A stretch of DNA of 64,000 nt from a virus, in the IMG/VR virus record IMGVR_UViG_3300033182_001068, positions 1 to 64,000 of that record. The stretch is one strand, 5' to 3'. The number at the start of each line of letters is the position of its first letter. Position 1 is the first letter of the stretch. The translations under genes and the position numbers were made by a program. The notes under the pieces are model-generated. The model ran no database searches, was not told where the DNA came from, and worked only from the letters and a program-made list of their open reading frames with translations. This document shows, piece after piece, positions 13,843 through 30,426 of this stretch.

Positions 13843-14688
13843 TTAAGGGGTCCGAAACAGACGGAAAAGCCTGTCTCTGAACCTCTTTTTGGCTGGCTGT
13901 GAACCGTGAAATACGGGGCAAACTTCGTCCTGTTTCCGCTGTTGCATCCGGTACTTCCGGTTCCGATTCTCGTCGTAGCCGACAAACACTTCCCCCATGC
14001 CTCGTGGGAAAATCAACTCATGGACATTTTGATCACCGTAAATGACCTTGTAGTCAACCGTTCGAGGAAATGTGATGATATGGGCGATCTTGGTACCCAT
14101 CGGAATGACAAACTCGTCCTCGTCGGTAAAAATGTTCAGAACCCAGTTCATATGGTGATAAAAATCCGTATGAACAACACCCGGTACAAGACTCCATCGG
14201 CGGTCCTGCTCCCACAGAACCGGCAAAATCATTGAGGACCAGCCGGGCGCTGTCTTGATCTCCCAAGGGTTAAGGATCTTGATCCAGTTTCCAGTCTCTA
14301 CAGCGCGCCCATTTGTTGCAGGGATTGGGCCAGTCTGCTCGTACCCAAAACTTTCAACTCCCAAACCCTGAATCTCTTCTTGAGTGTCATACCTTGCCTC
14401 CCACCCGGTCGAAAACGCATTTTTTCGGATGCGTACGTCGCATGGGAGCCGTAGAGTCATGCCCGTGTTCAGGAAATCCTGTGTGCCTTGGCATCGTTTC
14501 AAGGTTTGCTGTTCAGCATTCAGTTTCTTGAACCAGTCGGGGAAATGCAGGAAGTTGTCAATCGGGTCGATTCTCTGGTCGTAAAGACGGTTAGTGAGTG
14601 GGGCAACGAGGATTTGGCCCGGCTGAATCTCCGGAATGTCCCCAAAAGTCTTGGCAGAAACAAGGTCTTCGCTTTTGCGTTCAGGCAT
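13843..14688 (-). CDS. cupin-like protein, paralog of 28071-28793
   Basis: By-eye alignment with 28071-28793: KRCQGTQDFLNTGMTLRLPCDVRI vs YKCLPLTEANVNGWELVLQQDVVI; NPWEIKTAPGW vs TGWSFSTPPGI; MNWVL...IPMGTKIAHIITF vs MNWKI...FPAGSPFMFFQF. It may belong to an uncharacterised phage/bacterial DUF family (unverified). Confidence 0.55.
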   Translation of the reverse strand: MPERKSEDLVSAKTFGDIPEIQPGQILVAPLTNRLYDQRIDPIDNFLHFPDWFKKLNAEQQTLKRCQGTQDFLNTGMTLRLPCDVRIRKNAFSTGWEARYDTQEEIQGLGVESFGYEQTGPIPATNGRAVETGNWIKILNPWEIKTAPGWSSMILPVLWEQDRRWSLVPGVVHTDFYHHMNWVLNIFTDEDEFVIPMGTKIAHIITFPRTVDYKVIYGDQNVHELIFPRGMGEVFVGYDENRNRKYRMQQRKQDEVCPVFHGSQPAKKRFRDRLFRLFRTP

Positions 14689-14706
14689 GCTTACACCCTA
14701 CACCAG

Positions 14707-15420
14707 TCAGACTTTGGTAATAAGTGAAAGCCCCAAGGAGATAGGAATGTGGGAAACACGGACATCGTCTCGTGCCGCAAGGTCGGTAAACATCGGCCAG
14801 AAGTCGTGCGCTTCCCCGAGCCGAACGAGGTTGCCCTGATCGAGGGAAATGCCCAAGATGACTGTTCCGCCATCGGCACAGTTGTTGATAGCAGCCTCAA
14901 GCATCTCTGGGTTGGCGCTTGCGTCGGCAGCCTCAATGATCGAAATATCGAACTTTTGTGGGAACACTCCAGAACGAGCGTCGGCATGGGTTACAACGGT
15001 GTATTCCAAGTCATTTGGCAGCCCGAAGTGGCGTTCGACGTAATCGAGGTGAATGGAGTTCTCGACGAAAAGGTCGGCTTCGATGCCTGCTGTCATCATG
15101 AATTTCAAGACCGTGCTGTCCGAAAGGTACAACGATGCCGGTTTTGCGGCCCGAACAACACCTTCCACGATTGAGCAGTAAGCAGCAAAAGTGGTGTTGA
15201 AGTTGAACGACCCTGTCGCAATCAGGTCGTAGTTGACGATTTCGGTAGCAAATCCAATGGAGTTGCGATCTTGGGGTGCTCCGAGAGCGATTTCTTCTTG
15301 TTTGACTGCTTGACCAAACGATGTTCTGCGTTCGAGTGTGTAGTTCTCGCGGTGCGCGGTGTTCGAGATTGACTCGGTCATCGAAAACAACTGGGGCGCT
15401 GTCACGTCAATGCTGTCCAT
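14707..15420 (-). CDS. hypothetical protein, possible Rossmann/class-I methyltransferase-like fold
   Basis: YDLIATGSFNF...LYLSD...FDISIIEAAD...LEAAINNCADGGTVILGIS has the beta-strand/acidic-residue spacing of SAM-MTases, but no clean GxGxG. It shares an (A/I)(T/S)GSF motif with 22705-23478. Confidence 0.4.
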   Translation of the reverse strand: MDSIDVTAPQLFSMTESISNTAHRENYTLERRTSFGQAVKQEEIALGAPQDRNSIGFATEIVNYDLIATGSFNFNTTFAAYCSIVEGVVRAAKPASLYLSDSTVLKFMMTAGIEADLFVENSIHLDYVERHFGLPNDLEYTVVTHADARSGVFPQKFDISIIEAADASANPEMLEAAINNCADGGTVILGISLDQGNLVRLGEAHDFWPMFTDLAARDDVRVSHIPISLGLSLITKV

Positions 15421-15421
15421 T

Positions 15422-15700
15422 TCAGGCCATCCTTGCTTTCAAAACGTCCCTGTAATAACAGTGACGGCGAGCATCCTGCTTGGTGCGAGTAAAAACCCGG
15501 TACATCTGCCGCTGAGCAGTAGTTGTCAGAGTTGATTTATCGACAATGCCGTCAGGGTAGTAGTGCCCGGCAAGAAGCCCCATCAGTTCATCGACAGTGA
15601 TGTCAGCGGCGCGAGTTTCGTCTTCGCCACACAGCGCGATAAGGGATGCCACGGCAACAATCCGGTAGTCGTAATCATCTTGGATGTTGTATTGACCCAT
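15422..15700 (-). CDS. hypothetical protein (92 aa)
   Basis: Track ORF. Its ATG overlaps the upstream stop by 1 nt. Confidence 0.55.
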   Translation of the reverse strand: MGQYNIQDDYDYRIVAVASLIALCGEDETRAADITVDELMGLLAGHYYPDGIVDKSTLTTTAQRQMYRVFTRTKQDARRHCYYRDVLKARMA

Positions 15701-15837
15701 TACTCGGACTCTTCTTCCATATCGAAGGGAACGTTTTCGATGACGAAGCAGGAAACGATGTTGTCCTCGGCATCATCATCCCGAATGAATCGCTGGACAT
15801 CAGGGTCCCAGCCTTCAGGGACGTAAGTGTCACTCAT
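15700..15837 (-). CDS. small acidic protein (45 aa) ending ...DMEEESE
   Basis: Hand-translated: MSDTYVPEGWDPDVQRFIRDDDAEDNIVSCFVIENVPFDMEEESE. It fills the gap between two genes, and TAATG couples it to the next. Confidence 0.45.
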   Translation of the reverse strand: MSDTYVPEGWDPDVQRFIRDDDAEDNIVSCFVIENVPFDMEEESE

Positions 15838-15868: not shown

Positions 15869-16591
15869 TCAACTATTTTCAGAAGTGGCGTCAGACTCCT
15901 CAGATTCTTCCTTTTGGTCCGAGTAAAAGGGCGGCTCGATAGGCTCTTCGTGCTGGTTCTGGGTACAAACCATGAACGTACTGATCATCCACTTATCCTC
16001 CGACAGAGGCGTTTGCCCCATGTGAGGGTGCGTCCAAGAGGTCGGGAAAAGGGAAATTGAACCCGCTTTTGCCGGAACATGGAGGTCGTGCTCAGGAAAG
16101 TATGTGCTCCCCCCAACCTTTACATCGTTGAGGTAGATGACCGCACCCAGAACTCGCGGCCCGTACCCGGGGATTGGGTCCCATGCGGCTCCGTCAATGT
16201 GCGTCCTGTAAAACCCAACGTTTCGGAAATAACGCTGCAGCCTATATCCGGTGTCAGAAGGGTTTGGCCATTTCCAAAGTTCTTCATACTGCTGGATGTA
16301 GTGGCCAACTGCCGAGTACAAGCCGACACTGACCTCGTTCTCGTAAAACGCAAAATTGGATGAATCAACACCCCTGCTCTCAATGAACGAGCGAGAAAAG
16401 TTCATGTCGCTTGAGTTCTTCACCATCGGGTTTAGGCCCCCGAGGGTTACCCCGGGCTGAAAGAGCCGGTCAAAGTATCTGTTGCATTCGTCAACGAGCC
16501 CGCTCGCAACTTTTCTGGAAAACGCATTTTCAGCGACCATGATGTGTCGCTGCTTTCCTGCGGGGAACTTAAACGAAATGGTTTTAGACAC
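15869..16591 (-). CDS. 2OG-Fe(II) oxygenase (prolyl-4-hydroxylase-like)
   Basis: YRTHIDG (HxD), VIYLNDVKVGGSTYFP and WTHPHMG (distal His). Acidic Ser/Glu-rich C-terminal tail. Confidence 0.75.
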   Translation of the reverse strand: MSKTISFKFPAGKQRHIMVAENAFSRKVASGLVDECNRYFDRLFQPGVTLGGLNPMVKNSSDMNFSRSFIESRGVDSSNFAFYENEVSVGLYSAVGHYIQQYEELWKWPNPSDTGYRLQRYFRNVGFYRTHIDGAAWDPIPGYGPRVLGAVIYLNDVKVGGSTYFPEHDLHVPAKAGSISLFPTSWTHPHMGQTPLSEDKWMISTFMVCTQNQHEEPIEPPFYSDQKEESEESDATSENS

Positions 16592-18065
16592 CCGATAGTC
16601 CTTTCATGAGTGCATCTTTATGAGGTATGAAGTTTCCTGCCTTGTTCTGCTGGACGATGGTTCCAATTTCTTGTTGCAAAAACGTTTTTGTCCCACGCAA
16701 AGCAATGTTTTGTTCGCAGCCGTCAAATGCTACGAGGCCTTGCCCTTGCGCCACGTGCCAAAAATGAAACACCCGGAACAGTTCGTATCCGGCGACCGGC
16801 ACATCATGCTCCTCCAGCCCACGAATCGACATAATGTCCATAAGATGGTTAAGGAGATCAGGGCGTGGACGGTGCTTTTGCTCCAACCACATATCTGTGT
16901 CTTCCCTGTCTGACACATAATGCATTGCGATCATTGCCAGCAAGTTTCCCATCATCGAATCAATGATACGCAGATACTCGCTTCTCAGTTTGTCTTTGCG
17001 AGGCGAGTACACGGGCAAGTAACTCGTCAAAAGCATCGACTGGTTAATGCTTGCCGCAATCGATGTGGCCTCCAAAGGTTCTACAAACCCTGATGACAGC
17101 CCGATCGCAACGCAGTTCTTGACCCAACTGTTTTTCAGGTAGCCGGGCTCAAAGCGGATAAACCGATGTTCATCCCCAATTGTGTGCCCAGCCTGTTGTT
17201 CTGCTTCCTTCAGGGCGTCTTCGTCAGAAATGTGAGACGACGAGAAGACGTACCCGTTGCCCCTTCTGCTTTGTGTCGGGATTTCCCACATCCACCCTGC
17301 CGACATTGCCTGCGCCAAGGTGTAAGGCTTGATTCCGTCAACGGGATCTTCTGGGGTTGGGAACACGACAGCGCTGTCGGTTGGCAGATAGTCCGAATAG
17401 GAACACCAGTTCGGTTTTTCCAACTTGGAAATGACAGCCTTTCTAAAACCGGAAGCATCGACGACGAAATCGGTTTCGATAAGCCTCCCATCTTCAAGCA
17501 TTAGGGTTTCAATATCGCCGGTCTCTGGGGAGACACCAATGTCGATAACCTCGCCTTCAGTGAACATCACATTTGCGTCACTGCACTCAAGTCGCAGAAA
17601 GTCGTTGAGTTTGTGGGTATCGAAATGGAACTGATTTGTCTGCCCCAGAATGTCGTCGCCTTTGTCTGCAACAAGATTTCTTGTGAGCGAGGGAAGCCCA
17701 AACGCTGGGGTCAGTTGCCGCCCGTCGATATGAGCGGCGTTGTAAGTGCCGATAAACGTCGAGTGGACGGACTGTCCTCCGCTGATGCTGTGAAAGTAGT
17801 CGGGAGTATGGTTGGTCCAGTCTCTGAAGCGAATACCAAATTTGAAAGTCGCTTCCGTCGCTTCAACCATTTTTGTTCGATTGATGTTGGCGAGTTTCTC
17901 GAATGTTGACCAATGCTCTGTTGATCCTTCGCCAACTCCAACAATGCCGATTGAATCGGAAGAAATAACCTCAACATCAAGGTTGACAAAAATACGCTTC
18001 ATGATCAACGCGTTAATTAGCCCGGCTGTGCCAGAGCCAACGACAGTAAGTTTTTTTACAGTCAT
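16584..18065 (-). CDS. flavin-dependent (tryptophan-type) halogenase
   Basis: N-terminal VVGSGTAGL (GxGxxG), GVGEGS, ATFKFGIRFRDW (conserved Lys) and the hallmark WxWxIP motif as WMWEIP. At 493 aa the size is typical. Confidence 0.8.
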   Translation of the reverse strand: MTVKKLTVVGSGTAGLINALIMKRIFVNLDVEVISSDSIGIVGVGEGSTEHWSTFEKLANINRTKMVEATEATFKFGIRFRDWTNHTPDYFHSISGGQSVHSTFIGTYNAAHIDGRQLTPAFGLPSLTRNLVADKGDDILGQTNQFHFDTHKLNDFLRLECSDANVMFTEGEVIDIGVSPETGDIETLMLEDGRLIETDFVVDASGFRKAVISKLEKPNWCSYSDYLPTDSAVVFPTPEDPVDGIKPYTLAQAMSAGWMWEIPTQSRRGNGYVFSSSHISDEDALKEAEQQAGHTIGDEHRFIRFEPGYLKNSWVKNCVAIGLSSGFVEPLEATSIAASINQSMLLTSYLPVYSPRKDKLRSEYLRIIDSMMGNLLAMIAMHYVSDREDTDMWLEQKHRPRPDLLNHLMDIMSIRGLEEHDVPVAGYELFRVFHFWHVAQGQGLVAFDGCEQNIALRGTKTFLQQEIGTIVQQNKAGNFIPHKDALMKGLSGV

Positions 18066-18068: not shown

Positions 18069-18647
18069 TTACCGATACTGTCGTTTGAGCAGAATGTTGC
18101 TTTCTTCCGTGTAGATGGAGTGGGCAAAGGGGAATCCGCCGGGAGCGAACATGATGTCCCCTTGATTTAATTTGACTGTCAAATCGAGAGACGGGAACTC
18201 GATGTGCATTGGGCTGGGAGAAAGCGAAGCGATTTCGACGACTATTCCTTCTTCCAGATGATTGGAGAGAACAACAGATCTGCCCTGCTCGCCGTGCTTA
18301 GAAAACCTGAGAAGGTCATAGATCATCGACCCGTAATCACCAATGTCGACAGAATTGAAATAGTCCTTTGACAGTTCAAGCCCGGTATCAGAGATTGATG
18401 TGATGCGCTCTCGAAGAAAATCAAGAAACTCGTCTTTTACGTCAGTGGTGAGGGCGAAGAGAGAAGCGCTTTCTGATTTGCAATGGTCGTCCGCCCCAGC
18501 AGCAACAGTCGTAAATGTCACGAAAGACCAGTCACTAGAAGCCCCACGTTCAAGAATCGGAAGGAATTCGTCATCGACGCAAAAGGAGTGTTCGTAGACG
18601 TAGACATTGTCGTGATGTTCGGTAGGAAACATGGTCACCCCAACCAA
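18069..18647 (-). CDS. divergent double-stranded beta-helix (2OG oxygenase-like) protein with an HxE variant
   Basis: SNHLEEGIVVEIASLS...PMHIEFP...GDIMFAPGGFPFAHS parallels the HxD...GG..F.P...G....F....H layout of its neighbours. Confidence 0.5.
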   Translation of the reverse strand: MVGVTMFPTEHHDNVYVYEHSFCVDDEFLPILERGASSDWSFVTFTTVAAGADDHCKSESASLFALTTDVKDEFLDFLRERITSISDTGLELSKDYFNSVDIGDYGSMIYDLLRFSKHGEQGRSVVLSNHLEEGIVVEIASLSPSPMHIEFPSLDLTVKLNQGDIMFAPGGFPFAHSIYTEESNILLKRQYR

Positions 18648-19204
18648 CTGACGAGAGAGTACTTAACGCCGGATACGACAGGCATCGACGCATGACCGAA
18701 AGGGTAGGAGGAGGGGAACACCACAATGTTCCCGGCCTTAGCGGCGACTGACACTTTCCGCTGAGGGAATACAAGATCCCCACCTGTTTCAACGTCGTTG
18801 AGCATCAAAACGACACTGACGCTTCGTGATTCGAGCGGAGACCAGTCGAAGTGCGTAACGTATTCCGCTCCCTCCAAGTACCGGTTAACGGCCCACCCGT
18901 TGTCGAACCGAAGCGGGATCTGGTGCGATTCCTTGTACTTGTTGACAACGTCATCTACTTGCAAGTGCAGTTCTTTGAAAGCCAGAGTGACCGGATGGCT
19001 TGCGTAGCCGTCTGCGATCAGGACAGCGTTCAGATCGAACGAGTAGTTCGACCGTTTGTCCGTGATTTGCCCGGTGCCAACGGTGGCCCGTTTCCAGTGT
19101 GACGGGAAGTCTGGGATCTGCGCCCAATCTTCGAGGAGTTTCAGGAACGGCAAGTAGTCGTAGTCGAGCGTTTCTGTATGGATGAAACTGTCCATAGGTT
19201 TCAT
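18635..19204 (-). CDS. 2OG-Fe(II) oxygenase (prolyl-4-hydroxylase-like)
   Basis: YVTHFDW (HxD), VVLMLNDVETGGDLVFP, AGNIVVFPSSYPFGHAS...GVKYSLVSW. Confidence 0.75.
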   Translation of the reverse strand: MKPMDSFIHTETLDYDYLPFLKLLEDWAQIPDFPSHWKRATVGTGQITDKRSNYSFDLNAVLIADGYASHPVTLAFKELHLQVDDVVNKYKESHQIPLRFDNGWAVNRYLEGAEYVTHFDWSPLESRSVSVVLMLNDVETGGDLVFPQRKVSVAAKAGNIVVFPSSYPFGHASMPVVSGVKYSLVSWLG

Positions 19205-19656
19205 GCCCGAACCTCAAATTCGAATGTCGCCACAGTTCCGCTGTCGTCGAAGAGAGACCCGGTGTGGGCTCCGATGACTGTGGGGCGAATCTTGAACCTC
19301 ACCGACTTTTTGTCGACGCTTACATCGGAATCGAGGGAGGTTTTGTTGCCGAAGGAATCTTCGACCTCTGCGCTGATGGCATCCACTGGATCAAAGTCGT
19401 CGGCGTACTCGATCTTCACGATTTTCCCCAACTGGAGAAATTGTGGGTGGACTCGTAGGCTTTGAACCGTTGGGACGTCCAGCACTTGGACAGAATCCCT
19501 GTCAAATGTCAGGTCTTCGGTTTTGCTGTTGTCGCCTACAATGATGGGCAAGCCGTTTTCGTTGGCAAGGGCGGATGCTTCATCCAAACGATCATCGCTA
19601 GGGCAATAAATAACTCGCTCCACGTCACTCCGACTCTTCTTCTTCCGGAGGAGCAA
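19201..19656 (-). CDS. hypothetical protein (about 140-151 aa)
   Basis: Track ORF. An alternative GTG start at 19623 lies 2 nt after the upstream small-ORF stop. No motif recognised. Confidence 0.5.
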   Translation of the reverse strand: MLLRKKKSRSDVERVIYCPSDDRLDEASALANENGLPIIVGDNSKTEDLTFDRDSVQVLDVPTVQSLRVHPQFLQLGKIVKIEYADDFDPVDAISAEVEDSFGNKTSLDSDVSVDKKSVRFKIRPTVIGAHTGSLFDDSGTVATFEFEVRA

Positions 19657-20743: not shown

Positions 20744-21387
20744 TTCTCTTCAGACAGGAAGTACTCAATAGCCCCACGAATCCGCCTCAAGGCTTCTTTC
20801 GGGTCATAATCGTCATAACCGGTTTCGAAGTTCGCAGGAAGCAGTGAACCATTGGTGAATCGAACGCGCCGCTTTCCGTCGCGCGAAACAACCCACTTTT
20901 CGAAGTTTCCACGGATTGGCCCGTCCAGCACTCCGAGACGCTGATAAAGAGGGTGTGGATATTGGTCGGGTTCGTCTTCGTAATTCAATCGCGATGCCAC
21001 AAGTTCAGTAAAATCCATACGAACTCGATAGTTGTAGAAGGCATACTTGTGGCACTCTTCGGCAGTGGACTTGGAGTCTTTGAAATCCCCATACCCGTAC
21101 TCGCAGTAGTCATTAGTGGGGACGCAAATGATCTTGAATCCCTGATCGGCGTAGTCGTACTCAAGAACTTGCAGCATCGGGTACTGCATCGAGTTGCCGC
21201 ATTCTCCCGTCACGTTGACAATCATTGTCACCTCGCCGTGACGATCTGCCAGCAGGTTCGAGGTAGATCCGTCTACCGATTTGATGGCAATGTCGTAGAC
21301 ACTTTCGCCGTCTGCGGTCGGCCCAAAATGATGCTCTTTTTCGAGGATTTCGAGCATTGATGTGGTTTCGTTTGCAGTGATTGACAT
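20740..21387 (-). CDS. glutathione-peroxidase-family (thioredoxin-fold) protein
   Basis: IVNVTGECGNS (NVASxCG-like, Cys), FKIICVPTNDY (FPCNQF region) and GNFEKWVVSRDGK (WNFxKFL.). I prefer the ATG at 21387 over the track TTG at 21417. Confidence 0.7.
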   Translation of the reverse strand: MSITANETTSMLEILEKEHHFGPTADGESVYDIAIKSVDGSTSNLLADRHGEVTMIVNVTGECGNSMQYPMLQVLEYDYADQGFKIICVPTNDYCEYGYGDFKDSKSTAEECHKYAFYNYRVRMDFTELVASRLNYEDEPDQYPHPLYQRLGVLDGPIRGNFEKWVVSRDGKRRVRFTNGSLLPANFETGYDDYDPKEALRRIRGAIEYFLSEEK

Positions 21388-21393
21388 GACCCG

Positions 21394-21402
21394 ATGATAC
21401 CA
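21394..21402 (-). promoter_or_regulatory. extended -10-like box TGGTATCAT, 6 nt upstream of the ATG at 21387 (possible leaderless transcript)
   Basis: Minus strand reads CGTGGTATCATCGGGTCATG. No SD fits between the box and the ATG. Confidence 0.35.
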
Positions 21403-21421
21403 CGACCCCCTTATCAAAACG

Positions 21422-21702: not shown

Positions 21703-21703
21703 C

Positions 21704-21922: not shown

Positions 21923-21937
21923 TAACGAGGAGAAAAA

Positions 21938-23478: not shown

Positions 23479-23488
23479 TATGTAAACC

Positions 23489-24487
23489 ATGCCACAACAT
23501 TTCGGGCCACCCACACGAGACAAATACGCCTTCTACAGCCTAGACGAGGCTGACTGCGAGCGAATTGGCGGAATTGAGTACACCCACCATGTCGGCGGTG
23601 TCACACACTTCCACAACGCTTTCCAGATCGATCAAAGTGTCGTTCTTCCCTACATCGACGAAATGGCCTACGTGCCGTCCTGTGGCCTAGAGATCATCAA
23701 AGACGATGAAGGTAACATGATTCGAGGGGAGACCTTCGATGGCAAAGTGGTCGACATCAAAGACCTGCTAGCCCTACCGATGCGTGTTGGTGGAATGGGA
23801 ATGCCGGAACCAGTTCATCCCGGAACCCCTCACGAAGTTCGAGAATTCTTCGAAGGTGTCGAAAGAGCCTTTTACGACTCTCTTATCCGCTACTGTGATC
23901 TGTACCCACTCATCGTCAACTCGATCTGGTGGCGAATGCGAGGCCACTGTCTCAAATATCTGCGGGGCGCCAACCTCGGGCTACACAATGATAACGACAC
24001 GAACACATTTGTGATCGACGGCCAGCGCTACTACAGCGGACGAGAAATTGCGATGTATCAGGTCGTCAACGGTCTCGCCTACTTCAATGACGACTACGAG
24101 GGCGGAGAGATGCATTTCCCCTACCTCGACCTTACGATCAAGCCGAAAACCGGTGACATCATCCTTTTCCCAGCCAACTACGTCGGAGCGCACGGTGTCG
24201 CACAGGTCACGGGAGATATTCCGCGCTACACGTACTTAACGCAGTTCGGTCATGGCGGTGAACACAAATACGAGGTTCTTGAGCCACAGGAAAGCGACAT
24301 GTGGCTGGCACCTGTATACGTTCCGTTTCTTTATCAGGACCACGTCAAGTTCGCCCACTCAGGGCACTCACATCTGGACACATCGAAGGACGTCGCGTTG
24401 GGTTTCCACGCCTCCACCATCGAGACGCAGGAACGTTCAAAGGAAGGCGCTCCTGTCGGTACGGTTATTCCGTATGACGAGGTGTGA
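23489..24487 (+). CDS. 2OG-Fe(II) oxygenase with N-terminal extension
   Basis: SIWWRMRGH...LGLHNDND (HxD), AYFNDDYEGGEMHFP, GDIILFPANYVGAHGV. Paralog of 24465-25133 and 25680-26516. Confidence 0.75.
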   Translation: MPQHFGPPTRDKYAFYSLDEADCERIGGIEYTHHVGGVTHFHNAFQIDQSVVLPYIDEMAYVPSCGLEIIKDDEGNMIRGETFDGKVVDIKDLLALPMRVGGMGMPEPVHPGTPHEVREFFEGVERAFYDSLIRYCDLYPLIVNSIWWRMRGHCLKYLRGANLGLHNDNDTNTFVIDGQRYYSGREIAMYQVVNGLAYFNDDYEGGEMHFPYLDLTIKPKTGDIILFPANYVGAHGVAQVTGDIPRYTYLTQFGHGGEHKYEVLEPQESDMWLAPVYVPFLYQDHVKFAHSGHSHLDTSKDVALGFHASTIETQERSKEGAPVGTVIPYDEV

Positions 24488-25133
24488 ACGGAATCGTTCC
24501 AATAAGCGTTCCGTGTCCAAAAAATTCTAAGTAGGACACTCGTTCTCCTGAGGTGACTGGGACAACCTCGTGAGCCCCAAGGAATCCCGCCGGGTATACA
24601 AAAGCCGACCCAGTTTTTGGTTTGAAGTGCTTATCAATGTACTTGAAACCCAGATCTCCACCTTCACATTCGTCTTTAAGGATCAGCGAACCTGTCAAAA
24701 CGCTGTAGATGGCTTTTTCGCTTTCGGAACCATCTCCGACAAGATTGTCGTGGTGGTACCCCATGTAACCACCTACTCGATAAGTGGCAACATGAGGAAC
24801 TGCCCGCCACCAGATACTGTGCCGAGCCTCAGGGAAAAAATCGAAATACTTTGAGACGCATAGCGTCATCGTGTTTTCTAGCGCTTCAGCAAATGCCAAG
24901 TCCTCTTCGTTGGCATTAACTTTGAGTTGAAGTAGACGGCCCGGAGACGCATTTACCTGCTCTTCGGTGAAAATGTATCCACCACGATTCATGTAGGTTC
25001 CATCGCCTACCGGCTCGTAGTCACGTGGTTCTTGAGTTCTGCGCCGTTCCAGCCACGCTTCAAAAAACTCAGAATCGAAGTTAATGGCGTCGACGTACTC
25101 GACGATTCCAAAACCGTGATGAATCGCTTCCAT
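24465..25133 (-). CDS. 2OG-Fe(II) oxygenase
   Basis: SIWWRAVPH...GYHHDN (HxD), LILKDECEGGDLGF, GSAFVYPAGFLGAHEV. Its 3' end overlaps the convergent 23489-24487 gene by 23 nt. Confidence 0.75.
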   Translation of the reverse strand: MEAIHHGFGIVEYVDAINFDSEFFEAWLERRRTQEPRDYEPVGDGTYMNRGGYIFTEEQVNASPGRLLQLKVNANEEDLAFAEALENTMTLCVSKYFDFFPEARHSIWWRAVPHVATYRVGGYMGYHHDNLVGDGSESEKAIYSVLTGSLILKDECEGGDLGFKYIDKHFKPKTGSAFVYPAGFLGAHEVVPVTSGERVSYLEFFGHGTLIGTIPFTPRHTE

Positions 25134-25711
25134 TACTCGTCAGGGAACTCTGTTCCACGTTCCCGATCGTTGCGAAGTCGCTTTACTTCTTTTGCTGATG
25201 TCTCATGAACTTCTGCAGTCCAATACCCATCAGTGAAAAGATCGGAAATTTCTTGCGCCTTGGCGCCGGAGAGATAGATCGTGTGCTCATCTGTGTAGCC
25301 CTCACGACCGGGGTATGGCCAACCGTAAAGACCAGCCTCGACGTATTCGATGCCAGCCTCAGTAATGATCGACGCAAATTCTTTCTCCGACTCTTCACCC
25401 CAGAGTCCGTTTGCATCGACATAGATCCCGTCGAAACCAACCTTTGCGACATGCTTGGCGATTTCAAGTGGTGCTCCACCAAAAGCAATGCAGAAGAACA
25501 CATCTACCTTCTGCAGCATGATGTCCAAAGTTACGTAGTCAGAAAGTTCGAATTCTTCTGCTCGTGCTGCAGTTGTTTCCGATCGACCTTCTGAAGCCCA
25601 ATACACGTCGTGTCCACTACGGGTCAGGGCATACGCAAGCGTTCCACCCATCTTTCCGGGGTGAGCGATCCCGATGCTTTTAGCCGACCGGGGGGAGGAT
25701 TGAGTAGCCAT
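25133..25711 (-). CDS. NAD(P)-binding Rossmann-fold oxidoreductase-like protein
   Basis: N-terminal SIGIAHPGKMGGTLAYAL (GxGxxG-like) followed by an acidic residue after beta-2. I prefer the ATG at 25711 (MATQSS...). Confidence 0.55.
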   Translation of the reverse strand: MATQSSPRSAKSIGIAHPGKMGGTLAYALTRSGHDVYWASEGRSETTAARAEEFELSDYVTLDIMLQKVDVFFCIAFGGAPLEIAKHVAKVGFDGIYVDANGLWGEESEKEFASIITEAGIEYVEAGLYGWPYPGREGYTDEHTIYLSGAKAQEISDLFTDGYWTAEVHETSAKEVKRLRNDRERGTEFPDE

Positions 25712-26516
25712 TTTCCATGTACACATTCGTTGAGATTTTCGCAAGTTCCGGATTCTCGCGAGGGTCTACGACATTTTCACACACGTCCGGATTCGGTGTG
25801 CCTTGACAATACCATCCCAAATAGGAGTAGCGCCACCCCCCTATTACTGGCTGAACCTCATGGGCTGCCACGTAGTTCGAGGGAAAGAAGAGCATGTCGC
25901 CCTTTTTGATGTTTTTGTGGTTGATATCCAGATACGCAAAATTATGAGCGCCACCAGTGAAGTTGGTGCCGTCCAATTCTTCTTCGGACTCGACGGAGTC
26001 GTTCAGATAGGCGACCACGGAAACACTGTTTCGTGTTGCCAGTTGGTCTCGTGGGTGTGGTTTCCCGTATTCGTAATCCGTGCTCACATCCGCGTGCATT
26101 CCAAGGAATCCGCCGACCGGATAGGCAACAATGTGGCTTTTGATTTTCCACCAAATGCATTTTCCCGCGATAGGGAACATTTCCAAGTAAGCAAGTAGAC
26201 AGGCGTCACGACGCTCCTCGATGTAGTCAAGGGTGTCAATAACTTCTTGACGACTGTCCTGATGAACGAAACTTCCACGCCAAGGCATTTCATCAAGCGA
26301 GTCCTTCTTAAAGAAGTAGCCGCTTCGGTTGATGTATCCATCCTCGCCGGTAATGGGATCTTTCCCGGGGGTATACATGGTGTCGCGTTCTTGCTGCAAA
26401 ACTGTTTTGCAGTAATCGCGCATCCATGCCCAATCGAGGTCGAACACCTGTTCGAAAAGAACAACTCCTCCACCGAGATGCTTGCCAACCGGAAAATCTT
26501 TATCGCTCGAACTCAT
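25680..26516 (-). CDS. 2OG-Fe(II) oxygenase
   Basis: CIWWKIKSH...LGMHADV (HxD), AYLNDS...GGAHNF, GDMLFFPSNYVAAHEV. I prefer the ATG at 26516 (MSSSDKDF). Confidence 0.75.
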   Translation of the reverse strand: MSSSDKDFPVGKHLGGGVVLFEQVFDLDWAWMRDYCKTVLQQERDTMYTPGKDPITGEDGYINRSGYFFKKDSLDEMPWRGSFVHQDSRQEVIDTLDYIEERRDACLLAYLEMFPIAGKCIWWKIKSHIVAYPVGGFLGMHADVSTDYEYGKPHPRDQLATRNSVSVVAYLNDSVESEEELDGTNFTGGAHNFAYLDINHKNIKKGDMLFFPSNYVAAHEVQPVIGGWRYSYLGWYCQGTPNPDVCENVVDPRENPELAKISTNVYMENGYSILPPVG

Positions 26517-28074
26517 ATTCGTCCAACTCCAGCATGTATGAGATGTAATCGTTGATACGTTCAATGATTCTACGACGTTCGTCATTGTCTTTCAGGTGAT
26601 TGAAGCACCCATAGATAGAGTCAATGGCAAACTGCACAAGGAAATCTTCAGGGGGATTCTTCCCGTTGAAGCCCTCATAGGTCATGAACGACAGGTTGTG
26701 GAAGTCCCAAGGCCTGAATTGCAAAGGCTGATGTGGAAACCAGTCTGGATAATGCCAAGCATGGCCAGCGTGGCGCATGTCTGGATGCCAGCGAAGATAT
26801 GCTCGCACCTTCTCGATGGGAGTCAGCAAACCATCTTCATTGGACTTTGTTTGCATCAGGTCTTGACGCGCAGGCATTGACCCACCATGGGTGTCGCCAT
26901 TCCGAGAGAACAGGAACATCTGACCCTCGACTGGGTCTTCAACATTGTGGTGCTTGCTGTAGCGCATCAAATTGACGAAAACTCGGTTATTTTCGTCAAT
27001 CGGAACTCCGACGACATGGAAGTCATCAGACAGTTCGTCTGTCTCATCTATAAAATCCTTGAATTCTTGGACTTTCTGCGGAACGGAGCCATCCTCCGAA
27101 AACACGAACAATGTCACCTTTTGGAAAAGGTGTTCGAGCCCTCTCAGGGCGTAGATGCCTTTTGTGAAAACAAGCGGGATGTGATCAGGGTTCGGACCTT
27201 TTGAGCGGTCTTTTGCTACGCCTTTGTACTCGTTCGTGTCGCCGAAAGCCGGATCTAGGTTGCCCTCATGATTCACGTCATAGAACGGTGCCTCGTTGCC
27301 TACCTCTACACGCTGGAAGATTCGCTCCGATCGATCCCACCCGTTGTAGAAGCCGTGCATTACAGCCCGATTGTCCCAAATGATTACATCACCCTCTGAC
27401 CATGTCCACTTGAATCGGTTGGCTTCGTTGGCGCAGTAGTCAGTGACCCACTCGTAAAGTTCATCAAACCACGGAGTGTTGCCACCGGCCAGTGCTGTGC
27501 CCGGGCCAGTCCAATAAAGCATTGTCTCGCCGGTGTCTGGGTGAGTGCGAAGTGCTGGGTGCGTGGACACATCTTGATCGATCGCTCCTGTCTGGCATAC
27601 AAAGTGGGCGGTTTCGAGATGCTCTTTGATGTGGTCAGGACAATCGTTGTAGAGGTTTGCAAGACTCACGAAAAAGGTGTGTCCGTAATCCGGGTCCACC
27701 TTGTACGTCGTCATATGGATGGAAACCAGACATGGTGGTTCGGGCATGAAGGGGTTATCGACGTGCCAGTTGCGCTTCAAAAAACCCTCTGGATCAGTCT
27801 TGTCCTCAACGTTCAGTACGGTTTCATGTCGCTGTCCTGCCAACAATCCGCCGCTGAAGTCTTCATCGCGGACTCCTCGATACAAACAGTCCACCAACTG
27901 CATGTGCTCCAAGTCGGTAGGTCGCATGCCAATGAAGCCGATGACCTTGTTGCGCTTAAATATCTCCTTGAAGTACGAGGGATCGTCGAACACCTGTTCG
28001 GCTTTTACTCCTTTGATCTTGAATCCAAGATTGCCGAGTTTGAGACCGAGGGCGATTCCGCCAAATTTCTTCAT
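26500..28074 (-). CDS. TauD/TfdA-family 2OG dioxygenase with an uncharacterised C-terminal domain of about 250 aa
   Basis: NWHVDNPF (WHxD), GHTFFVSLANLY and WSEGDVIIWDNRAVMHG. The ATG at 28074 forms an ATGA overlap with the upstream stop. Confidence 0.75.
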   Translation of the reverse strand: MKKFGGIALGLKLGNLGFKIKGVKAEQVFDDPSYFKEIFKRNKVIGFIGMRPTDLEHMQLVDCLYRGVRDEDFSGGLLAGQRHETVLNVEDKTDPEGFLKRNWHVDNPFMPEPPCLVSIHMTTYKVDPDYGHTFFVSLANLYNDCPDHIKEHLETAHFVCQTGAIDQDVSTHPALRTHPDTGETMLYWTGPGTALAGGNTPWFDELYEWVTDYCANEANRFKWTWSEGDVIIWDNRAVMHGFYNGWDRSERIFQRVEVGNEAPFYDVNHEGNLDPAFGDTNEYKGVAKDRSKGPNPDHIPLVFTKGIYALRGLEHLFQKVTLFVFSEDGSVPQKVQEFKDFIDETDELSDDFHVVGVPIDENNRVFVNLMRYSKHHNVEDPVEGQMFLFSRNGDTHGGSMPARQDLMQTKSNEDGLLTPIEKVRAYLRWHPDMRHAGHAWHYPDWFPHQPLQFRPWDFHNLSFMTYEGFNGKNPPEDFLVQFAIDSIYGCFNHLKDNDERRRIIERINDYISYMLELDEYEFER

Positions 28075-28793
28075 TTTGGTTCTTTCAGTTGCGGGTGGCC
28101 GTCGAAGCGTGGACCGATCTGATTGCCGTTCTCGTCCAGTCCTGTGCGGATTCCGCCCATCCATGTCCAAGGCTGCTCTTGCAGTTTTTTCATTTTCGCA
28201 TCCCCGTAAGACTGCCGGGCAGCGGAAAGTTCTGGCTTATCCCAGTAGTTCTCAACATTGAACTCAACGCTGGGCATTAGAGATGTGTCGTAAAACTGGA
28301 AAAACATGAATGGTGATCCCGCCGGGAAAACGACAGGCTCGCCAATCTTGGTGATTTTCCAGTTCATGTTGAACTCGTCTGGCCACCACTCGGATGGGAT
28401 GTGAGCGGTCAATGGAACCGCTCCGTCTACGAAGTAGTTGGGTGAGCCAGAGATCCATGTACCGATACCCGGAGGTGTAGAGAATGACCAGCCAGTTGTG
28501 AATGACATGATGCCGATGATGCTGGGCATAACGATGTCTCGCTCATAGGTCTGACCATTTGTCTCAAACGTCATTTTTTCGCCGCTCAAAACACGTGGGA
28601 CAGTGAGTCCTCCATCCCATTGAATAACGACGTCTTGCTGAAGGACCAGTTCCCAGCCGTTGACGTTTGCTTCGGTAAGAGGCAGGCACTTGTATGCGTG
28701 CTTCTTGTACGTCTCGTCCATCCAGTCCCTTCGGACTTCGGCCTGCCTGATTTGAGGAGGGTTCTGGTGGGTGCGTGTAACGGTGACTTGCAT
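28071..28793 (-). CDS. cupin-like protein, paralog of 13843-14688
   Basis: See 13843-14688. The ATG at 28793 overlaps the upstream TGA by 1 nt. The longer track ORF (to 29213) is Arg-rich off-frame sequence and is rejected. Confidence 0.55.
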   Translation of the reverse strand: MQVTVTRTHQNPPQIRQAEVRRDWMDETYKKHAYKCLPLTEANVNGWELVLQQDVVIQWDGGLTVPRVLSGEKMTFETNGQTYERDIVMPSIIGIMSFTTGWSFSTPPGIGTWISGSPNYFVDGAVPLTAHIPSEWWPDEFNMNWKITKIGEPVVFPAGSPFMFFQFYDTSLMPSVEFNVENYWDKPELSAARQSYGDAKMKKLQEQPWTWMGGIRTGLDENGNQIGPRFDGHPQLKEPK

Positions 28794-29494
28794 CAGGACA
28801 GGGTTGACGTCTGGTTGCTTACGACAGGAATACCAGACATTGCAACAGTTGGTTCTGGCGCTTGTGTAGCCGAGTGTTGCTGATGGTTTCGGTCGTTGTA
28901 GTCGTACATTGTGACTGCTGAGTACTTGACGCCTTCGTTGACCGGCTGGGAGGCATGTGCGTAGATGAAATCGCTTGGGTGAACGATGACGTCGCCAGCC
29001 TCGGGAACGAACTTGAGGTTCTTGAATGGCATGACATATTCGCCGCCGGTGTAGTCGTCGTTGATATATCCGATTGTCGATACGGCACAGGAGTAAGAGA
29101 ACCCTGAGTCGGGGTGAACGGCGAAGTGTTGTCCAACGCCGTACTTCACGAAATTGGTTGCTTCTTCGTAGTCGAGTTGAAGGTTGTAGAGGCTTGAGTA
29201 GTGACGCACACACTCACGTACACCGCCGATGACTTCTTCGTACACTTTGCCGAGATCGGCAAACTCTTCGGGGACGGGAAGATCGAACTGTCGTAGTTTG
29301 AAGTCGAAGCAGTCTCGGTAGTCCCTCATGACTTCGTAGTCGCCAACTGTGGCCTGTTTCCAACTGAAGTATTCGTGGGTGCTTCCTTCCAGACCACGTT
29401 CGAGTCTGCCAACAAAATCGGAGCCTTCGGGCCAAACGTCTTTGTAGAGGAGGATTCCGTCACTGGGGTTTCCCAGATAACCACCGATACGCAT
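28793..29494 (-). CDS. 2OG-Fe(II) oxygenase (prolyl-4-hydroxylase-like)
   Basis: FAVHPDSG (HxD), GYINDDYTGGEYVMPF, GDVIVHPSDFIYAHAS...GVKYSAV. Confidence 0.75.
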   Translation of the reverse strand: MRIGGYLGNPSDGILLYKDVWPEGSDFVGRLERGLEGSTHEYFSWKQATVGDYEVMRDYRDCFDFKLRQFDLPVPEEFADLGKVYEEVIGGVRECVRHYSSLYNLQLDYEEATNFVKYGVGQHFAVHPDSGFSYSCAVSTIGYINDDYTGGEYVMPFKNLKFVPEAGDVIVHPSDFIYAHASQPVNEGVKYSAVTMYDYNDRNHQQHSATQAPEPTVAMSGIPVVSNQTSTLS

Positions 29495-29498
29495 GTTG

Positions 29499-30128
29499 TT
29501 ACCTCAGTTCAGTAATTGTGTAGAAAGATGGGGTTGTCCAGCGTTCACCAGACACCATTGGTTTTACCCCGTGCAGGTAGTGTACGTCGCCGGGGTGAGC
29601 GACCGCCATGCCTGCTTTGATTGGCAGGTGGATATCAAACTCGGGGTAGTAGAAGTCTCCACCCTCGAAGTTGTCGTTCCAGTAAATGATCGAATTGATG
29701 TCGTATGTTGGGAACGGGTTCGGTGTTCCGTCGTTCAGTTGCTTGTCGGCGTGCGGTTGCTGTTCGTTTCCTTCAAGCCACCTGATCAAGACCGGTGGTC
29801 GTTTGTACAGTGAAACGTTGAACTTCTGTTCGAGTACGTTCTGCATCTTGTCGATGTACTTGTCGATGAGCGCATGCATGTCTGGGGCAATCCTCTGAAG
29901 GATTGTTCCACTACACATGCGATCCCACCAGTATGAGGCATCGTAAATACAGGTTCCATCTTCGTTGAACTCGTCCCCCAAGGGGTTTTCCCACTCTGAG
30001 ATCGTCGGGAAAAACTCCTGCAACACTTTCAGGTCGTCTGGGTCGACAAAATCTTCGATGATTGTGATGTTGTCGGCAGATGTTCCAAAGTGGCCGGGTT
30101 CGACTAGAGAGACTTCATCGTCAGCCAT
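29499..30128 (-). CDS. 2OG-Fe(II) oxygenase (prolyl-4-hydroxylase-like)
   Basis: QPHADKQ (HxD), IIYWNDNFEGGDFYYPEF, AGMAVAHPGDVHYLHGV...GERW. Confidence 0.75.
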   Translation of the reverse strand: MADDEVSLVEPGHFGTSADNITIIEDFVDPDDLKVLQEFFPTISEWENPLGDEFNEDGTCIYDASYWWDRMCSGTILQRIAPDMHALIDKYIDKMQNVLEQKFNVSLYKRPPVLIRWLEGNEQQPHADKQLNDGTPNPFPTYDINSIIYWNDNFEGGDFYYPEFDIHLPIKAGMAVAHPGDVHYLHGVKPMVSGERWTTPSFYTITELR

Positions 30129-30150
30129 GCGGCCAGACTAGCACGATCAG

Positions 30151-30426
30151 TTACTTGGCGTGCAGGATCTTCCGTACCTTCGCCTCGAACAGTAAATGGA
30201 AAGTCAGCCACACCCAGACAACTCGCAGTGTTGGCCCGGCAATGCTTTGTTCTGCTGAGCGCCAAAAATAGCGAGACAGGGTTTCGATCCGTCTAGTCTT
30301 TATTGCAAACACATCGTAAGCAATAATAACCAAGATGAGACCGACCCACCCGTATGCGCCAGATGCGCGACTATCTCGCGTCAAGTCAATTGGACCCAAA
30401 TACCATCCAATAAACCGCTTGAGCAT
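30151..30426 (-). CDS. small membrane protein (2-3 TM)
   Basis: 91 aa with hydrophobic segments GWVGLILVIIAYDVFAI and VVWVWLTFHLLF. Confidence 0.55.
   Translation of the reverse strand: MLKRFIGWYLGPIDLTRDSRASGAYGWVGLILVIIAYDVFAIKTRRIETLSRYFWRSAEQSIAGPTLRVVWVWLTFHLLFEAKVRKILHAK

Follow-up and report, generated by a model that had tools for sequence, protein, structure and literature searches.

We analysed a 64,000-nt window, a segment of a myovirus genome (positions 1 to 64,000 of the IMG/VR record IMGVR_UViG_3300033182_001068), and concentrated on an island of 27 open reading frames (ORFs) at positions 13843-30426. The island codes for an array of Fe(II)/2-oxoglutarate (2OG) oxygenases, a flavin-dependent halogenase, two proteins belonging to or near the family DUF6065 and a number of accompanying proteins, and it is composed of two enzyme modules that are joined to separate sets of fibre genes. 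Its gene content, catalytic motifs, homology, synteny and co-inheritance with fibre genes are directly supported by the data. We tentatively interpret the island as a set of enzymes for the post-translational tailoring of fibre proteins.

Organization of the island

ORF calling disclosed 27 ORFs packed into three strand blocks, eight genes on the minus strand (30426-24465), seven on the plus strand (~21469-24487) and twelve on the minus strand (21387-13843). Most junctions are overlaps or gaps of less than 25 nt. Thus, the boundaries, strand units and tight packing given in an initial annotation of this DNA were reproduced. The same annotation had described the island as splitting the fibre module, for which two modules joined to separate fibre genes is the better description. 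Module A (30128-23489) is located after the long fibre gene FIB1132, together with the genes of the HFPP repeat protein and m91 (31011-30151), and has the order P4H_7, P4H_6, DUF6065, TauD_2, P4H_5, NAD(P) reductase and P4H_4, with P4H_3 and a methyltransferase-like protein encoded on the opposite strand. Module B (21387-13843) lies ahead of f123, f226 and COLfib, its fibre genes, and comprises the genes of the glutathione peroxidase (GPx)-fold protein, TauD_1, u151, P4H_2, a degenerate P4H, the halogenase, P4H_1, u92, a methyltransferase-like protein and D65a (Table 1).

The enzyme genes share the strand with the structural genes and are contiguous with them, and start/stop overlaps extend from the GPx gene (21387) via COLfib to position 8530. 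Judged from the sequence, co-transcription of enzyme and fibre genes is likely. A scan for promoter- and terminator-like sites gave none above chance and was uninformative. Since the GC content of the island (0.51) equals that elsewhere in the phage (38-48 kb), the island is not compositionally foreign; a horizontally acquired island of foreign composition was ruled out by the matching GC content and by the synteny across the phage family.

A Pfam and NCBIfam scan covered the island ORFs other than p102, p72, p70, p76 and two ORFs of 49 and 52 aa. In the scanned ORFs every recognisable enzyme is a tailoring enzyme; non-ribosomal peptide synthetases, polyketide synthases, ATP-grasp proteins and ligases were not detected, no ORF matched Cupin_8/JmjC in Pfam at E values up to 0.1, and NCBIfam gave nothing further. 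By Pfam and motifs, the enzyme inventory listed initially turned out to be essentially right, except for the assignment of two cupin-like proteins (see below).

Co-inheritance of enzyme and fibre genes

The island and the tail region gave zero megablast matches among 50,697 GenBank phages. Within IMG/VR, the island was found to be syntenic in ~100 or more contigs. A relative contig with 97% identity was found; the exact halogenase sequence is not on record. The loci of halogenase relatives (L001-L011 in IMG/VR, 44-65% identity) contain the same neighbours in the same order. All island proteins were mapped onto IMG/VR loci by tblastn. Module A recurred in dozens of IMG/VR contigs at 40-90% identity, beginning with f452-f244-FIB1132, followed by either the gene of an xFPP repeat protein and m91 or by a GPx-like gene, and continuing with P4H_7-P4H_6-DUF6065-TauD_2-P4H_5-NAD-P4H_4, while P4H_3, u262 and a p70-like ORF reside on the other strand. 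For module B the pattern is [f123]-f226-COLfib beside (u151)-P4H_2-(degenerate P4H)-halogenase-(P4H_1, u92, u237)-D65a. It was detected in at least three genomic positions and adjoins f226/COLfib each time: at the end of the island (the window and L001-L011), upstream of f452 (L259, L278, L280, L281, L283, L289) and after FIB1132 (L237, L284, L292, L295, L299).

The association was also seen in counts. f226/COLfib lies within 7 kb in 16 of 20 halogenase loci, the other four contigs ending on that side, and a halogenase lies within 7 kb in 19 of 20 f226/COLfib loci, the remaining contig ending just after P4H_2. In a sample obtained with f452 as query, which is independent of both halogenase and COLfib, co-occurrence was 11/11. 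The link of the island to fibre genes, already apparent in the initial annotation, is conserved in the ~100 or more contigs and survives rearrangements. The island is widespread but not universal, because some relatives with ~50% f452 identity lack oxygenase, DUF6065 and TauD genes within 8-10 kb downstream.

Five contigs from metagenome-assembled genomes (MAGs) labelled Gammaproteobacteria, Verrucomicrobiales, Acidibacter and Cyclobacteriaceae (L141-L145) carry phage fibre genes together with module A (DUF6065 identity 57-68%). They are most likely phage contigs mis-binned into MAGs, their taxon labels being uninformative on the host.

Fibre proteins and candidate substrates

Two flanking proteins had been singled out initially, a Gly-X-Pro collagen-like fibre and an (H/F)FPP repeat protein, and both stood up to closer inspection. 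COLfib possesses G-X-Y runs of 10, 13, 13 and 10 triplets and a core rich in His, Asn, Pro and Tyr, in which residues 291-445 consist of 20.6% His and show GHNP motifs. The architecture is common to 19/19 distinct homologs: a conserved N-terminal domain, G-X-Y runs, the core, more triplets and a conserved C-terminal end. In the cores of these homologs, His, Asn, Pro, Thr and Tyr abound and the motifs GHNP and NHHH recur; the overall His content is 3.4-9.2%. Island-less relatives contain unrelated Gly-rich fibre-like ORFs with 0-1.7% His; an assignment of these fibres as COLfib homologs was considered and is unsupported. f226 is always paired with COLfib, and f123-like genes occur also in island-less relatives.

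The gene of the (H/F)FPP protein, with its 26 FPP units, is located exactly between the fibre gene FIB1132 and the first P4H gene. It is conserved in relatives: homologs from at least 8 distinct phages contain 12-34 perfect xFPP repeats, and the full-length ones terminate in FPP[GRS]FK. The homologs (L063, L064, L066, L068, L074, L077, L082, L130) keep a perfect four-residue periodicity despite the varying number of repeats. One or two WFPP units are usually present near the C-terminus and are absent in L064, L068 and L082.

FIB1132 resides immediately upstream of module A in dozens of loci. Its N-terminal domain, Mtd_N, is that of the major tropism determinant of the Bordetella phage BPP-1. 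f452, for which 320 relatives exist in IMG/VR, is paralogous to part of FIB1132.

The 2OG oxygenases

Pfam and alignment agreed on the seven P4H-type oxygenases with an HxD...H triad that had been counted before. The family corresponds to Pfam 2OG-FeII_Oxy_3, and six of the seven proteins scored above the gathering score (>27 bits); P4H_7 reached 21.5 bits, which is below the cut-off, and is clearly paralogous to the other P4H copies. The HxD motif, the distal His and a Lys or Arg ~10 residues further on are kept in all seven sequences. Orthologs of P4H_7 were found in ~70 or more loci and P4H_6 in at least 79 IMG/VR loci. P4H_2 adjoins the halogenase gene in every case, and P4H_3 stays on the opposite strand in relatives. 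The best PDB matches of the P4H_6 family profile were the collagen P4H of B. anthracis (2.4e-5) and the human lysyl hydroxylase LH3 (5e-4).

The one divergent HxE member of the initial count (18069-18647) indeed shows HGE and a distal His, without a Pfam match or a clear 2OG-binding Lys or Arg. It is probably a degenerate P4H copy, since these two elements are retained and the BLAST similarity to the paralogs is weak.

Both TauD/TfdA-type dioxygenases were verified by Pfam. For TauD_1 a PDB sequence search was empty. The TauD_2 profile matched RdpA/TauD/AtsK at 1e-26 over residues 13-264 only and contains the motif WHVDNPF...HP...R. TauD_2 has an additional conserved C-terminal domain of ~260 aa (26500-27290), which matched neither Pfam nor PDB; its invariant motifs are PNPDHIPLVFTKG, HPDMRHAGHAWHYPDWFPHQP and FAIDxxYGCFNH.

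Altogether, the array comprises two P4H subgroups, one degenerate copy and two TauD-type enzymes with pairwise identities of at most 39%. Three oxygenases had been reported to share an (I)WW(R/K) signature and to descend from a local duplication. The alignment bore out the signature; the duplication must be ancient, because the three proteins have only 27-39% mutual identity and each copy has its own orthologs across many phages. A recent local duplication was thus ruled out, the paralogs being old and individually conserved.

The DUF6065 proteins

D65a and D65b, the two proteins annotated as paralogous and cupin-like, are indeed distant paralogs, as both match phrog_7084 and align to each other with an hhalign E value of 3.6e-4. 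The cupin fold was not upheld. The AlphaFold (AF2) model of D65a had a mean confidence score (pLDDT) of 81.9, and its best Foldseek matches in PDB were trimeric dUTPases (E 3.5e-4, probability 1.0, target-normalised TM score 0.6-0.65); in BFVD, uncharacterised phage proteins came first and dUTPases next. No cupin was among the listed top Foldseek matches in PDB and BFVD, by which a cupin/DSBH fold was ruled out for 13843-14688 and 28071-28793. Searched with the family sequence profile, PDB returned solely dUTPases at E values of 0.08-1.9, which are not significant. D65a carries the sequence GVVHTDFYHH resembling dUTPase motif III, and other dUTPase motifs were not recognisable. Thus, D65a adopts a dUTPase fold without being a dUTPase. 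We conclude that D65a and D65b are members or close relatives of DUF6065 with a dUTPase-like fold. As this pair is devoid of a cupin fold, the number of DSBH proteins in the island is 10 and not 12.

A full HMMER search yielded 1,196 cluster representatives of DUF6065. Among 39 long members the fusion partners were 2OG-FeII_Oxy_3 (8), Cupin_8/JmjC (6 and 2), PqqD (3), sulfotransferases (3), SapC (2) and a glycosyltransferase-like domain (1), and in terms of sequence these partners point to peptide or protein substrates. Fusions of DUF6065 and P4H within a single stop-free frame were identified in at least 13 bacterial loci (L152, L162, L168, L170, L171, L174, L184, L190-L192, L198, L200, L213). 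They have ~510-570 codons and originate mostly from Alphaproteobacteria, for instance Sphingomonas segetis, and in one case from a Solirubrobacterales MAG. Tandem duplicates of DUF6065 were found in several other bacterial loci. Such cellular fusions show that the DUF6065-P4H pair also exists outside the context of phage fibres. The genes around cellular DUF6065 revealed no conserved pattern other than a P4H-type oxygenase fused or adjacent to it.

The halogenase and other island proteins

The flavin-dependent halogenase was confirmed by its Pfam match and by intact motifs (GSGTAG10, the catalytic Lys K75, WMWEIP258 and EPLE329). In PDB it matched 6frl (BrvH, 4.6e-56) and 6y1w (Xcc4156, 1e-55). 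BrvH and Xcc4156 are reported not to use free Trp.

The annotation as a GPx-fold protein was likewise correct; a Cys occupies the position of the catalytic residue, and the true start is probably at 21387. For the putative NAD(P)-binding Rossmann protein, Pfam pointed in the anticipated direction, but the match was weak and below the cut-off; the gene is conserved between P4H_5 and P4H_4 in ~45 loci. Of the suggested pair of Rossmann/methyltransferase-like paralogs, the paralogy was affirmed, the u237 and u262 families being aligned by hhalign with 97.5% probability (E 6.4e-12), while the fold received weak support. The AF2 model of u262 is of low confidence (pLDDT 56.6), and its top Foldseek matches, all of them cation-dependent class I (CCoAOMT-like) O-methyltransferases, covered ~100-115 residues with E≥2.3e-3. 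The S-adenosylmethionine-binding motif I (GxGxG) was not evident in either protein, and neither had a match in Pfam, NCBIfam or, by sequence, PDB; u237 had no PHROG match either.

u151 is located upstream of P4H_2 in L001-L011 and other loci; it had no Pfam or PHROG match and no similarity to gp40 of the cyanophage Syn9. The small proteins p102, p72, p70 and s94 constitute one family of acidic helical proteins (s94 versus p70, E 3.9e-4) whose alignment shows conservation over the whole length. Copies of the s94 type always follow COLfib and end with KLEGPNR(I/V), and those of the p70 type are always found alongside u262 and P4H_3. Members of this family may be chaperones of fibres or enzymes. 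The small plus-strand ORFs were also considered as precursors of ribosomally synthesised and post-translationally modified peptides. This was ruled out as they are conserved over the whole length like folded proteins and exhibit no leader/core pattern. A PqqD recognition element was not detected among the scanned island ORFs.

Proposed function and alternatives

We propose that during assembly in the cell the P4H-type oxygenases would hydroxylate residues of the unusual fibre proteins, by default Pro and possibly Asn, His or Lys. In COLfib, the Gly-X-Pro runs and the GHNP/His-rich core are candidate substrates, as are the polyproline-like repeats of the (H/F)FPP protein. The halogenase would act on an electron-rich aromatic side chain, e.g., of Trp or Tyr, and the methyltransferase-like paralogs may cap the new hydroxyls. 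The oxygenases and the halogenase could depend on DUF6065 proteins as obligate partners, which would be either substrate-presenting or Cys-dependent catalytic subunits, and the GPx-fold and NAD(P) proteins may provide redox support by removing peroxide or reducing flavin or iron. The region may be regarded, with due reserve, as a late-gene enzyme set tied to the tail fibres, of which we infer the expression timing, the substrates and the fibre chemistry.

Fibre tailoring is favoured for several reasons. The enzyme genes are co-oriented and overlap with late structural genes, their co-inheritance with one specific fibre family persists despite rearrangements and in different lineages, and they co-vary with the His/Pro-rich fibre core. 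In addition, the oxygenases have affinities to collagen hydroxylases, all recognised enzymes are tailoring enzymes with no scaffold-building enzyme among them, and the fusion partners of DUF6065 are peptide-oriented. The conservation of the xFPP protein exactly between the fibre and the first P4H lends further support. Of the three hypotheses in the initial annotation, namely modification of virion fibres, tailoring of a small molecule or peptide, and reprogramming of host metabolism, the first has hence gained most support (co-inheritance, P4H relatives, lack of a scaffold enzyme, DUF6065 fusions), and none of them is proven.

Some data weigh against fibre tailoring. Most of what is known about TauD/TfdA-type enzymes and BrvH/Xcc4156-like halogenases concerns small-molecule chemistry, and the His-rich stretches of the fibre could be explained by metal coordination alone, as in the HxH motifs of T4 gp37. 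The alphaproteobacterial DUF6065-P4H fusions occur without nearby fibre genes or a conserved neighbourhood; because of this, the enzyme pair does not need a phage fibre. Module A is without an obvious universal substrate, since many phages possessing it have no HFPP gene and FIB1132 contains no collagen-like, His-rich or Pro-rich segment. The adjacency of the genes can also reflect a permissive insertion hot-spot near fibre genes instead of a shared function. Moreover, homologous cyanophage clusters were read by Iyer et al. 2010 (PMC2938197) and 2021 (PMC7824862) as pathways for secondary metabolites.

The latter interpretation, transferred to the island, would imply a small-molecule or short-peptide pathway, in which a free amino acid or a host- or phage-made peptide is successively hydroxylated, halogenated and methylated to give a diffusible or cell-bound secondary metabolite, e.g., a siderophore-like or toxic halogenated compound. 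Relatives of the TauD/TfdA-type enzymes act on small molecules, fusion partners of DUF6065 in bacteria include SapC, PqqD and a glycosyltransferase-like domain, cellular DUF6065-P4H fusions lie far from any fibre gene, and BrvH and Xcc4156 presumably stem from SapC/cupin/TonB-receptor neighbourhoods. Products of such neighbourhoods were predicted to be siderophore-like (PMC2938197), and the published reading of the Syn9 and S-SSM6a clusters (PMC2938197, PMC7824862) is along the same line. However, a core biosynthetic enzyme, a carrier protein, a transporter and a recognisable precursor peptide are all missing from the scanned ORFs, and the small ORFs, being conserved in full length like folded helical proteins, are unlike leader/core precursors. 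The strict co-inheritance of the halogenase module with one fibre family would be unexpected for such a pathway, as would the adjacency to fibre genes in Syn9, and a metabolite made at the time of assembly, as suggested by the position of the genes in a presumably late structural operon, would be of little gain to a lytic phage. We consider a small-molecule or peptide pathway less probable than fibre tailoring, but a serious alternative to it.

Two other explanations are still less convincing. In the classical reading as auxiliary metabolic genes, the oxygenases would consume 2OG and O2 or hydroxylate host proteins such as translation factors or regulators and, together with GPx and the reductase, change the nitrogen, redox or stress status of the host. 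Bacterial P4H-type enzymes hydroxylating EF-Tu are known, the GPx-fold and NAD(P) proteins suit a redox theme, and 2OG oxygenases are very common in marine phages (76/153 cyanophages), for which modulation of 2OG/NtcA has been proposed (Sullivan et al. 2010). The NtcA argument, however, is inapplicable in a probable actinobacterial host, a drain of 2OG would take one enzyme and not ten, and the location and orientation of the genes suggest an expression too late for takeover. As this explanation also leaves ten diverse conserved oxygenases, a halogenase and DUF6065 in fixed order beside fibres unaccounted for, we regard it as improbable. Even more so, it is very improbable that the island modifies nucleotides or DNA, with a pyrimidine nucleotide as ligand of the dUTPase-fold proteins and with bases as targets of the oxygenases or the halogenase. 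In its favour, hydroxylation of bases is known for 2OG oxygenases, including members of the TauD family, D65a combines a dUTPase-like fold with a motif III-like sequence, and genes of nucleotide metabolism (thymidylate-synthase-like, dCMP-deaminase, PAPS-reductase-like) are present at 56-59 kb. But the oxygenases are of the P4H and TauD types and not of the TET/JBP or AlkB type, the D65 proteins lack other dUTPase motifs and a significant sequence match, the fusion partners of DUF6065 modify peptides or proteins rather than nucleic acids, and the island resides in the fibre region, ~25 kb away from the nucleotide genes.

Returning to fibre tailoring, it is conceivable, if rather unlikely in this general form, that phage fibres are enzymatically matured materials, in which hydroxyl, halogen and possibly methoxy groups are installed on collagen-like, His-rich and polyproline-like fibres by a dedicated set of phage enzymes, each of them operating together with a dUTPase-fold partner. 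If so, the added groups could form cross-links or metal-binding sites and alter fibre stability or receptor binding, with parallels to collagen, extensins and His-rich halogenated invertebrate biomaterials, and the clusters of 2OG oxygenases and halogenases in marine cyanophages would be explained as well. Hydroxylated or halogenated fibres would represent a new class of post-translational modification of virions, with effects on adsorption, host range, particle stability in water and the iron or halogen chemistry of phages, and their enzymes would be a source of new peptide-directed hydroxylases and halogenases. A small-molecule product would instead mean widespread phage-borne biosynthetic pathways in freshwater or marine actinobacterial phages. 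Whichever product is made, DUF6065 emerges as a partner family of peptide- or protein-modifying oxygenases in phages and bacteria.

For about 20 years, multiple 2OG oxygenases and PrnA-like halogenases have been among the commonest "auxiliary" genes of aquatic phages that lack an explanation. A halogenase and a dUTPase-fold partner are now seen beside genes of Gly-rich fibres in two unrelated myovirus lineages, and in the lineage of the window both are co-inherited with one collagen-like, His-rich fibre gene. This ties the Syn9-type cluster to particular unusual fibre proteins and makes the question of its function testable.

Genomic context

The sheath, baseplate and terminase genes of the window resemble those of actinobacteriophage myoviruses (31-39% identity), and the sheath protein has 31-39% identity to sheaths of Gordonia, Brevibacterium and Arthrobacter myophages. 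The phage had been described as WhiB-carrying, and a corresponding Cys motif (C...CxxCx5C...GVWAG) was seen, by motif alone. A longer plus-strand ORF (1884-2267) overlapping this motif is probably spurious. Because of the WhiB-like gene and the relatives of the sheath, the source, an uncultivated myovirus, probably has an actinobacterial host.

Between the head/tail and the recombination genes, positions 56110-59215 (minus strand) contain genes for a dCMP deaminase, a thymidylate-synthase-like protein that is extended by ~150 aa at its N-terminus, and a PAPS-reductase-like protein (phrog_2302, 1e-71). Together they could be a nucleotide or DNA-modification module. At 8530-10860 (minus strand), between fibre and endolysin-like genes, a protein of 776 aa is encoded. 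Its N-terminus resembles a signal peptide, its poly-Thr/Pro linkers are very long, and its C-terminal tail is rich in Gly and Ser. Pfam gave no match for this protein; in relatives (36-71% identity) its gene follows s94.

Table 1. Features of the window, sorted by position
Feature	Position	Strand	Evidence and remarks
WhiB-like Cys motif	~1956-2114	-	motif only
Two PG_binding_1 endolysin-like genes	6467-8260
s94, small helical protein	10861-11145	-	after COLfib; p70 family
COLfib, collagen-like fibre, main candidate substrate	11172-12746	-	Pfam Collagen 1.2e-5; PHROG tail fibre match
f226, Gly-rich fibre protein	12746-13426	-	N-terminal domain common with COLfib, 39% identity over 79 aa
f123, small fibre-associated beta protein	13426-13797	-	conserved upstream of f226 and COLfib
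D65a, predicted dUTPase-fold protein	13843-14688	-	phrog_7084 2.4e-23; invariant Cys66; HTDxYH motif
u237, methyltransferase-like	14707-15420	-	paralog of u262
u92, small conserved protein	15422-15700	-	orthologs in L002, L003-5, L007, L011
P4H_1, P4H-type 2OG oxygenase	15869-16591	-	Pfam 5.9e-7; HID131
Flavin-dependent halogenase, Trp-halogenase family, BrvH/Xcc4156-like	16584-18065	-	Pfam Trp_halogenase 1e-98
Degenerate DSBH-like protein (probable)	18069-18647	-	HGE118 and distal His; BLAST to P4H_3 1.8e-4
P4H_2, P4H-type 2OG oxygenase, module B core	18635-19204	-	Pfam 1.2e-13
u151, always first gene of module B	19201-19656	-	likely real start GTG ~19620; conserved upstream of P4H_2
TauD_1, TauD/TfdA-type dioxygenase	19784-20743	-	Pfam TauD 1.7e-16; HLE97 variant
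GSHPx-fold protein, Cys type	20740-21417	-	Pfam GSHPx 1.2e-10; GECG71, NFEKW171
p102, p72, p70, p76, p111, five small ORFs	21469-22712	+
u262, methyltransferase-like	22690-23478	+	likely ATG start 22705
P4H_3, P4H-type 2OG oxygenase, IWWR group	23489-24487	+	Pfam 4.2e-7; convergent with P4H_4
P4H_4, P4H-type 2OG oxygenase, IWWR group	24465-25133	-	Pfam 1.1e-7; alignment
Putative NAD(P)-binding Rossmann oxidoreductase	25133-25744	-	NAD_binding_2 5.8e-4, F420_oxidored 9e-3, both below cut-off
P4H_5, P4H-type 2OG oxygenase, IWWK group	25680-26516	-	Pfam 4.7e-11; alignment; synteny
TauD_2, TauD/TfdA-type dioxygenase	26500-28074	-	Pfam TauD 2e-26, N-terminal half only; HVD104
D65b, DUF6065 protein	28071-28793	-	Pfam DUF6065 3.6e-42; invariant Cys36; start overlaps P4H_6 stop
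P4H_6, P4H-type 2OG oxygenase, module A core	28793-29494	-	Pfam 5.4e-8
P4H_7, P4H-type 2OG oxygenase, module A core	29499-30128	-	Pfam 4.6e-4; HAD126, distal His, Arg
m91, small hydrophobic, DUF7427-like	30151-30426	-	Pfam DUF7427 2.5e-5, below cut-off; follows HFPP gene in relatives
HFPP repeat protein, candidate hydroxylase substrate	30436-31011	-	~85-aa N-terminal domain and 26 (H/F/W)FPP copies
FIB1132, long tail fibre	31027-34425	-	N-terminal Mtd_N, Pfam 2.5e-18
f244, fibre-associated	34425-35159	-	between f452 and FIB1132 in nearly all related loci
f452, fibre protein	35211-36569	-	first of block f452-f244-FIB1132 before module A
Baseplate wedge	41348-42583		PHROG search
Tape measure	46038-50096		PHROG search
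Tail sheath	51418-52917		PHROG search
Large terminase	62911-63966		PHROG search

Comparison with known systems

The initial annotation had rightly pointed to the 2OG oxygenases of cyanomyoviruses, but its statement that the island was unrecognised and novel was too strong. In the phage Syn9, Iyer et al. 2010 (PMC2938197) described a cluster in which Trp-type halogenases and a dUTPase-fold Cys protein accompany many mutually unrelated 2OG dioxygenases, and they predicted its product to be a secondary metabolite that derives from an amino acid and is halogenated and hydroxylated. A similar prediction was made for S-SSM6a (Iyer et al. 2021, PMC7824862). Like Syn9, the island contains a tandem array of many 2OG-Fe(II) dioxygenases without recent duplicates, a Trp-halogenase-type flavoenzyme, here with intact Rossmann motif and catalytic Lys, and a dUTPase-fold protein with a conserved Cys. 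In Syn9 the latter, gp43, follows directly after the halogenases gp41 and gp42, an order of genes shared with the island, and it is homologous to the D65a family (hhalign 97.7%, E 1.8e-12). Both clusters are located directly downstream of tail-fibre and Gly-rich fibre genes, that of Syn9 directly following the tail fibre gene gp34 and the Gly-rich gp36, gp38 and gp39. Detectable similarity is limited to the halogenase (26-30% identity), gp43 and gp50. While Syn9 is a T4-like cyanophage of the Kyanoviridae and encodes a JmjC/MINA-like protein (gp49), the island belongs to a non-T4 myovirus and no JmjC/MINA-like member was found in it. Instead, it has two TauD-type enzymes, GPx, the NAD(P) protein and two methyltransferase-like paralogs, and it is linked to two proteins that were not described before, a collagen-like/His-rich fibre and an xFPP repeat protein. 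In the literature, no paper on hydroxylated or halogenated phage fibres and nothing usable on the expression timing of homologous cyanophage or pelagiphage genes was found.

RefSeq names within the oxygenase clusters of Syn9 (L301), HTVC008M (L012) and S-H38 (L013), such as 'minor coat protein', 'DNA endonuclease V' and 'ferrochelatase', conflict with the classification as 2OG dioxygenases by Iyer et al. 2010 and look like propagated mis-annotations.

With the systems for prolyl and lysyl hydroxylation of collagen (animal C-P4H and LH3, B. anthracis P4H), the island shares P4H-type DSBH proteins that carry HxD...H and a basic residue for 2OG binding and whose genes neighbour that of a Gly-X-Pro triplet protein. 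Collagen hydroxylases are also known from giant viruses (mimivirus L230, PBCV-1 P4H). Compared with B. anthracis P4H and human LH3, the similarity of P4H_6 is weak (E 2e-5 to 5e-4) and confined to the catalytic core. Unlike the collagen systems, the island, whose enzymes are predicted ones, has neither a peptide-substrate-binding domain nor a subunit resembling protein disulfide isomerase, and for collagen hydroxylation far fewer enzymes than ten oxygenases and a halogenase would suffice.

The halogenase is closest to BrvH and Xcc4156, which we take to belong to bacterial neighbourhoods of SapC, cupin/JmjC, Trp-halogenase and TonB-receptor genes. These neighbourhoods resemble the island in combining a halogenase with hydroxylases, and DUF6065 is elsewhere fused to SapC and Cupin_8/JmjC. 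The island differs by the absence of TonB-receptor, SapC and JmjC genes and by its probably Gram-positive host. For the bacterial SapC/cupin/TonB-receptor halogenase neighbourhoods, a halogenated siderophore-like compound was predicted (Iyer et al. 2010, PMC2938197).

Oxygenase-halogenase pairs inside the structural region are also a feature of T4-like marine phages (e.g., the Pelagibacter phage HTVC008M), and the halogenases of this group have 30-37% identity to that of the island; VirX1 of cyanophage Syn10 was a distant PDB match (9e-34). In these phages, however, the genes are scattered in ones to fours and no DUF6065 partner was detected by tblastn, whereas the island forms one 27-gene block of fixed order. 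Taken together, the island is a Syn9-type system in a different phage lineage and with a different content.

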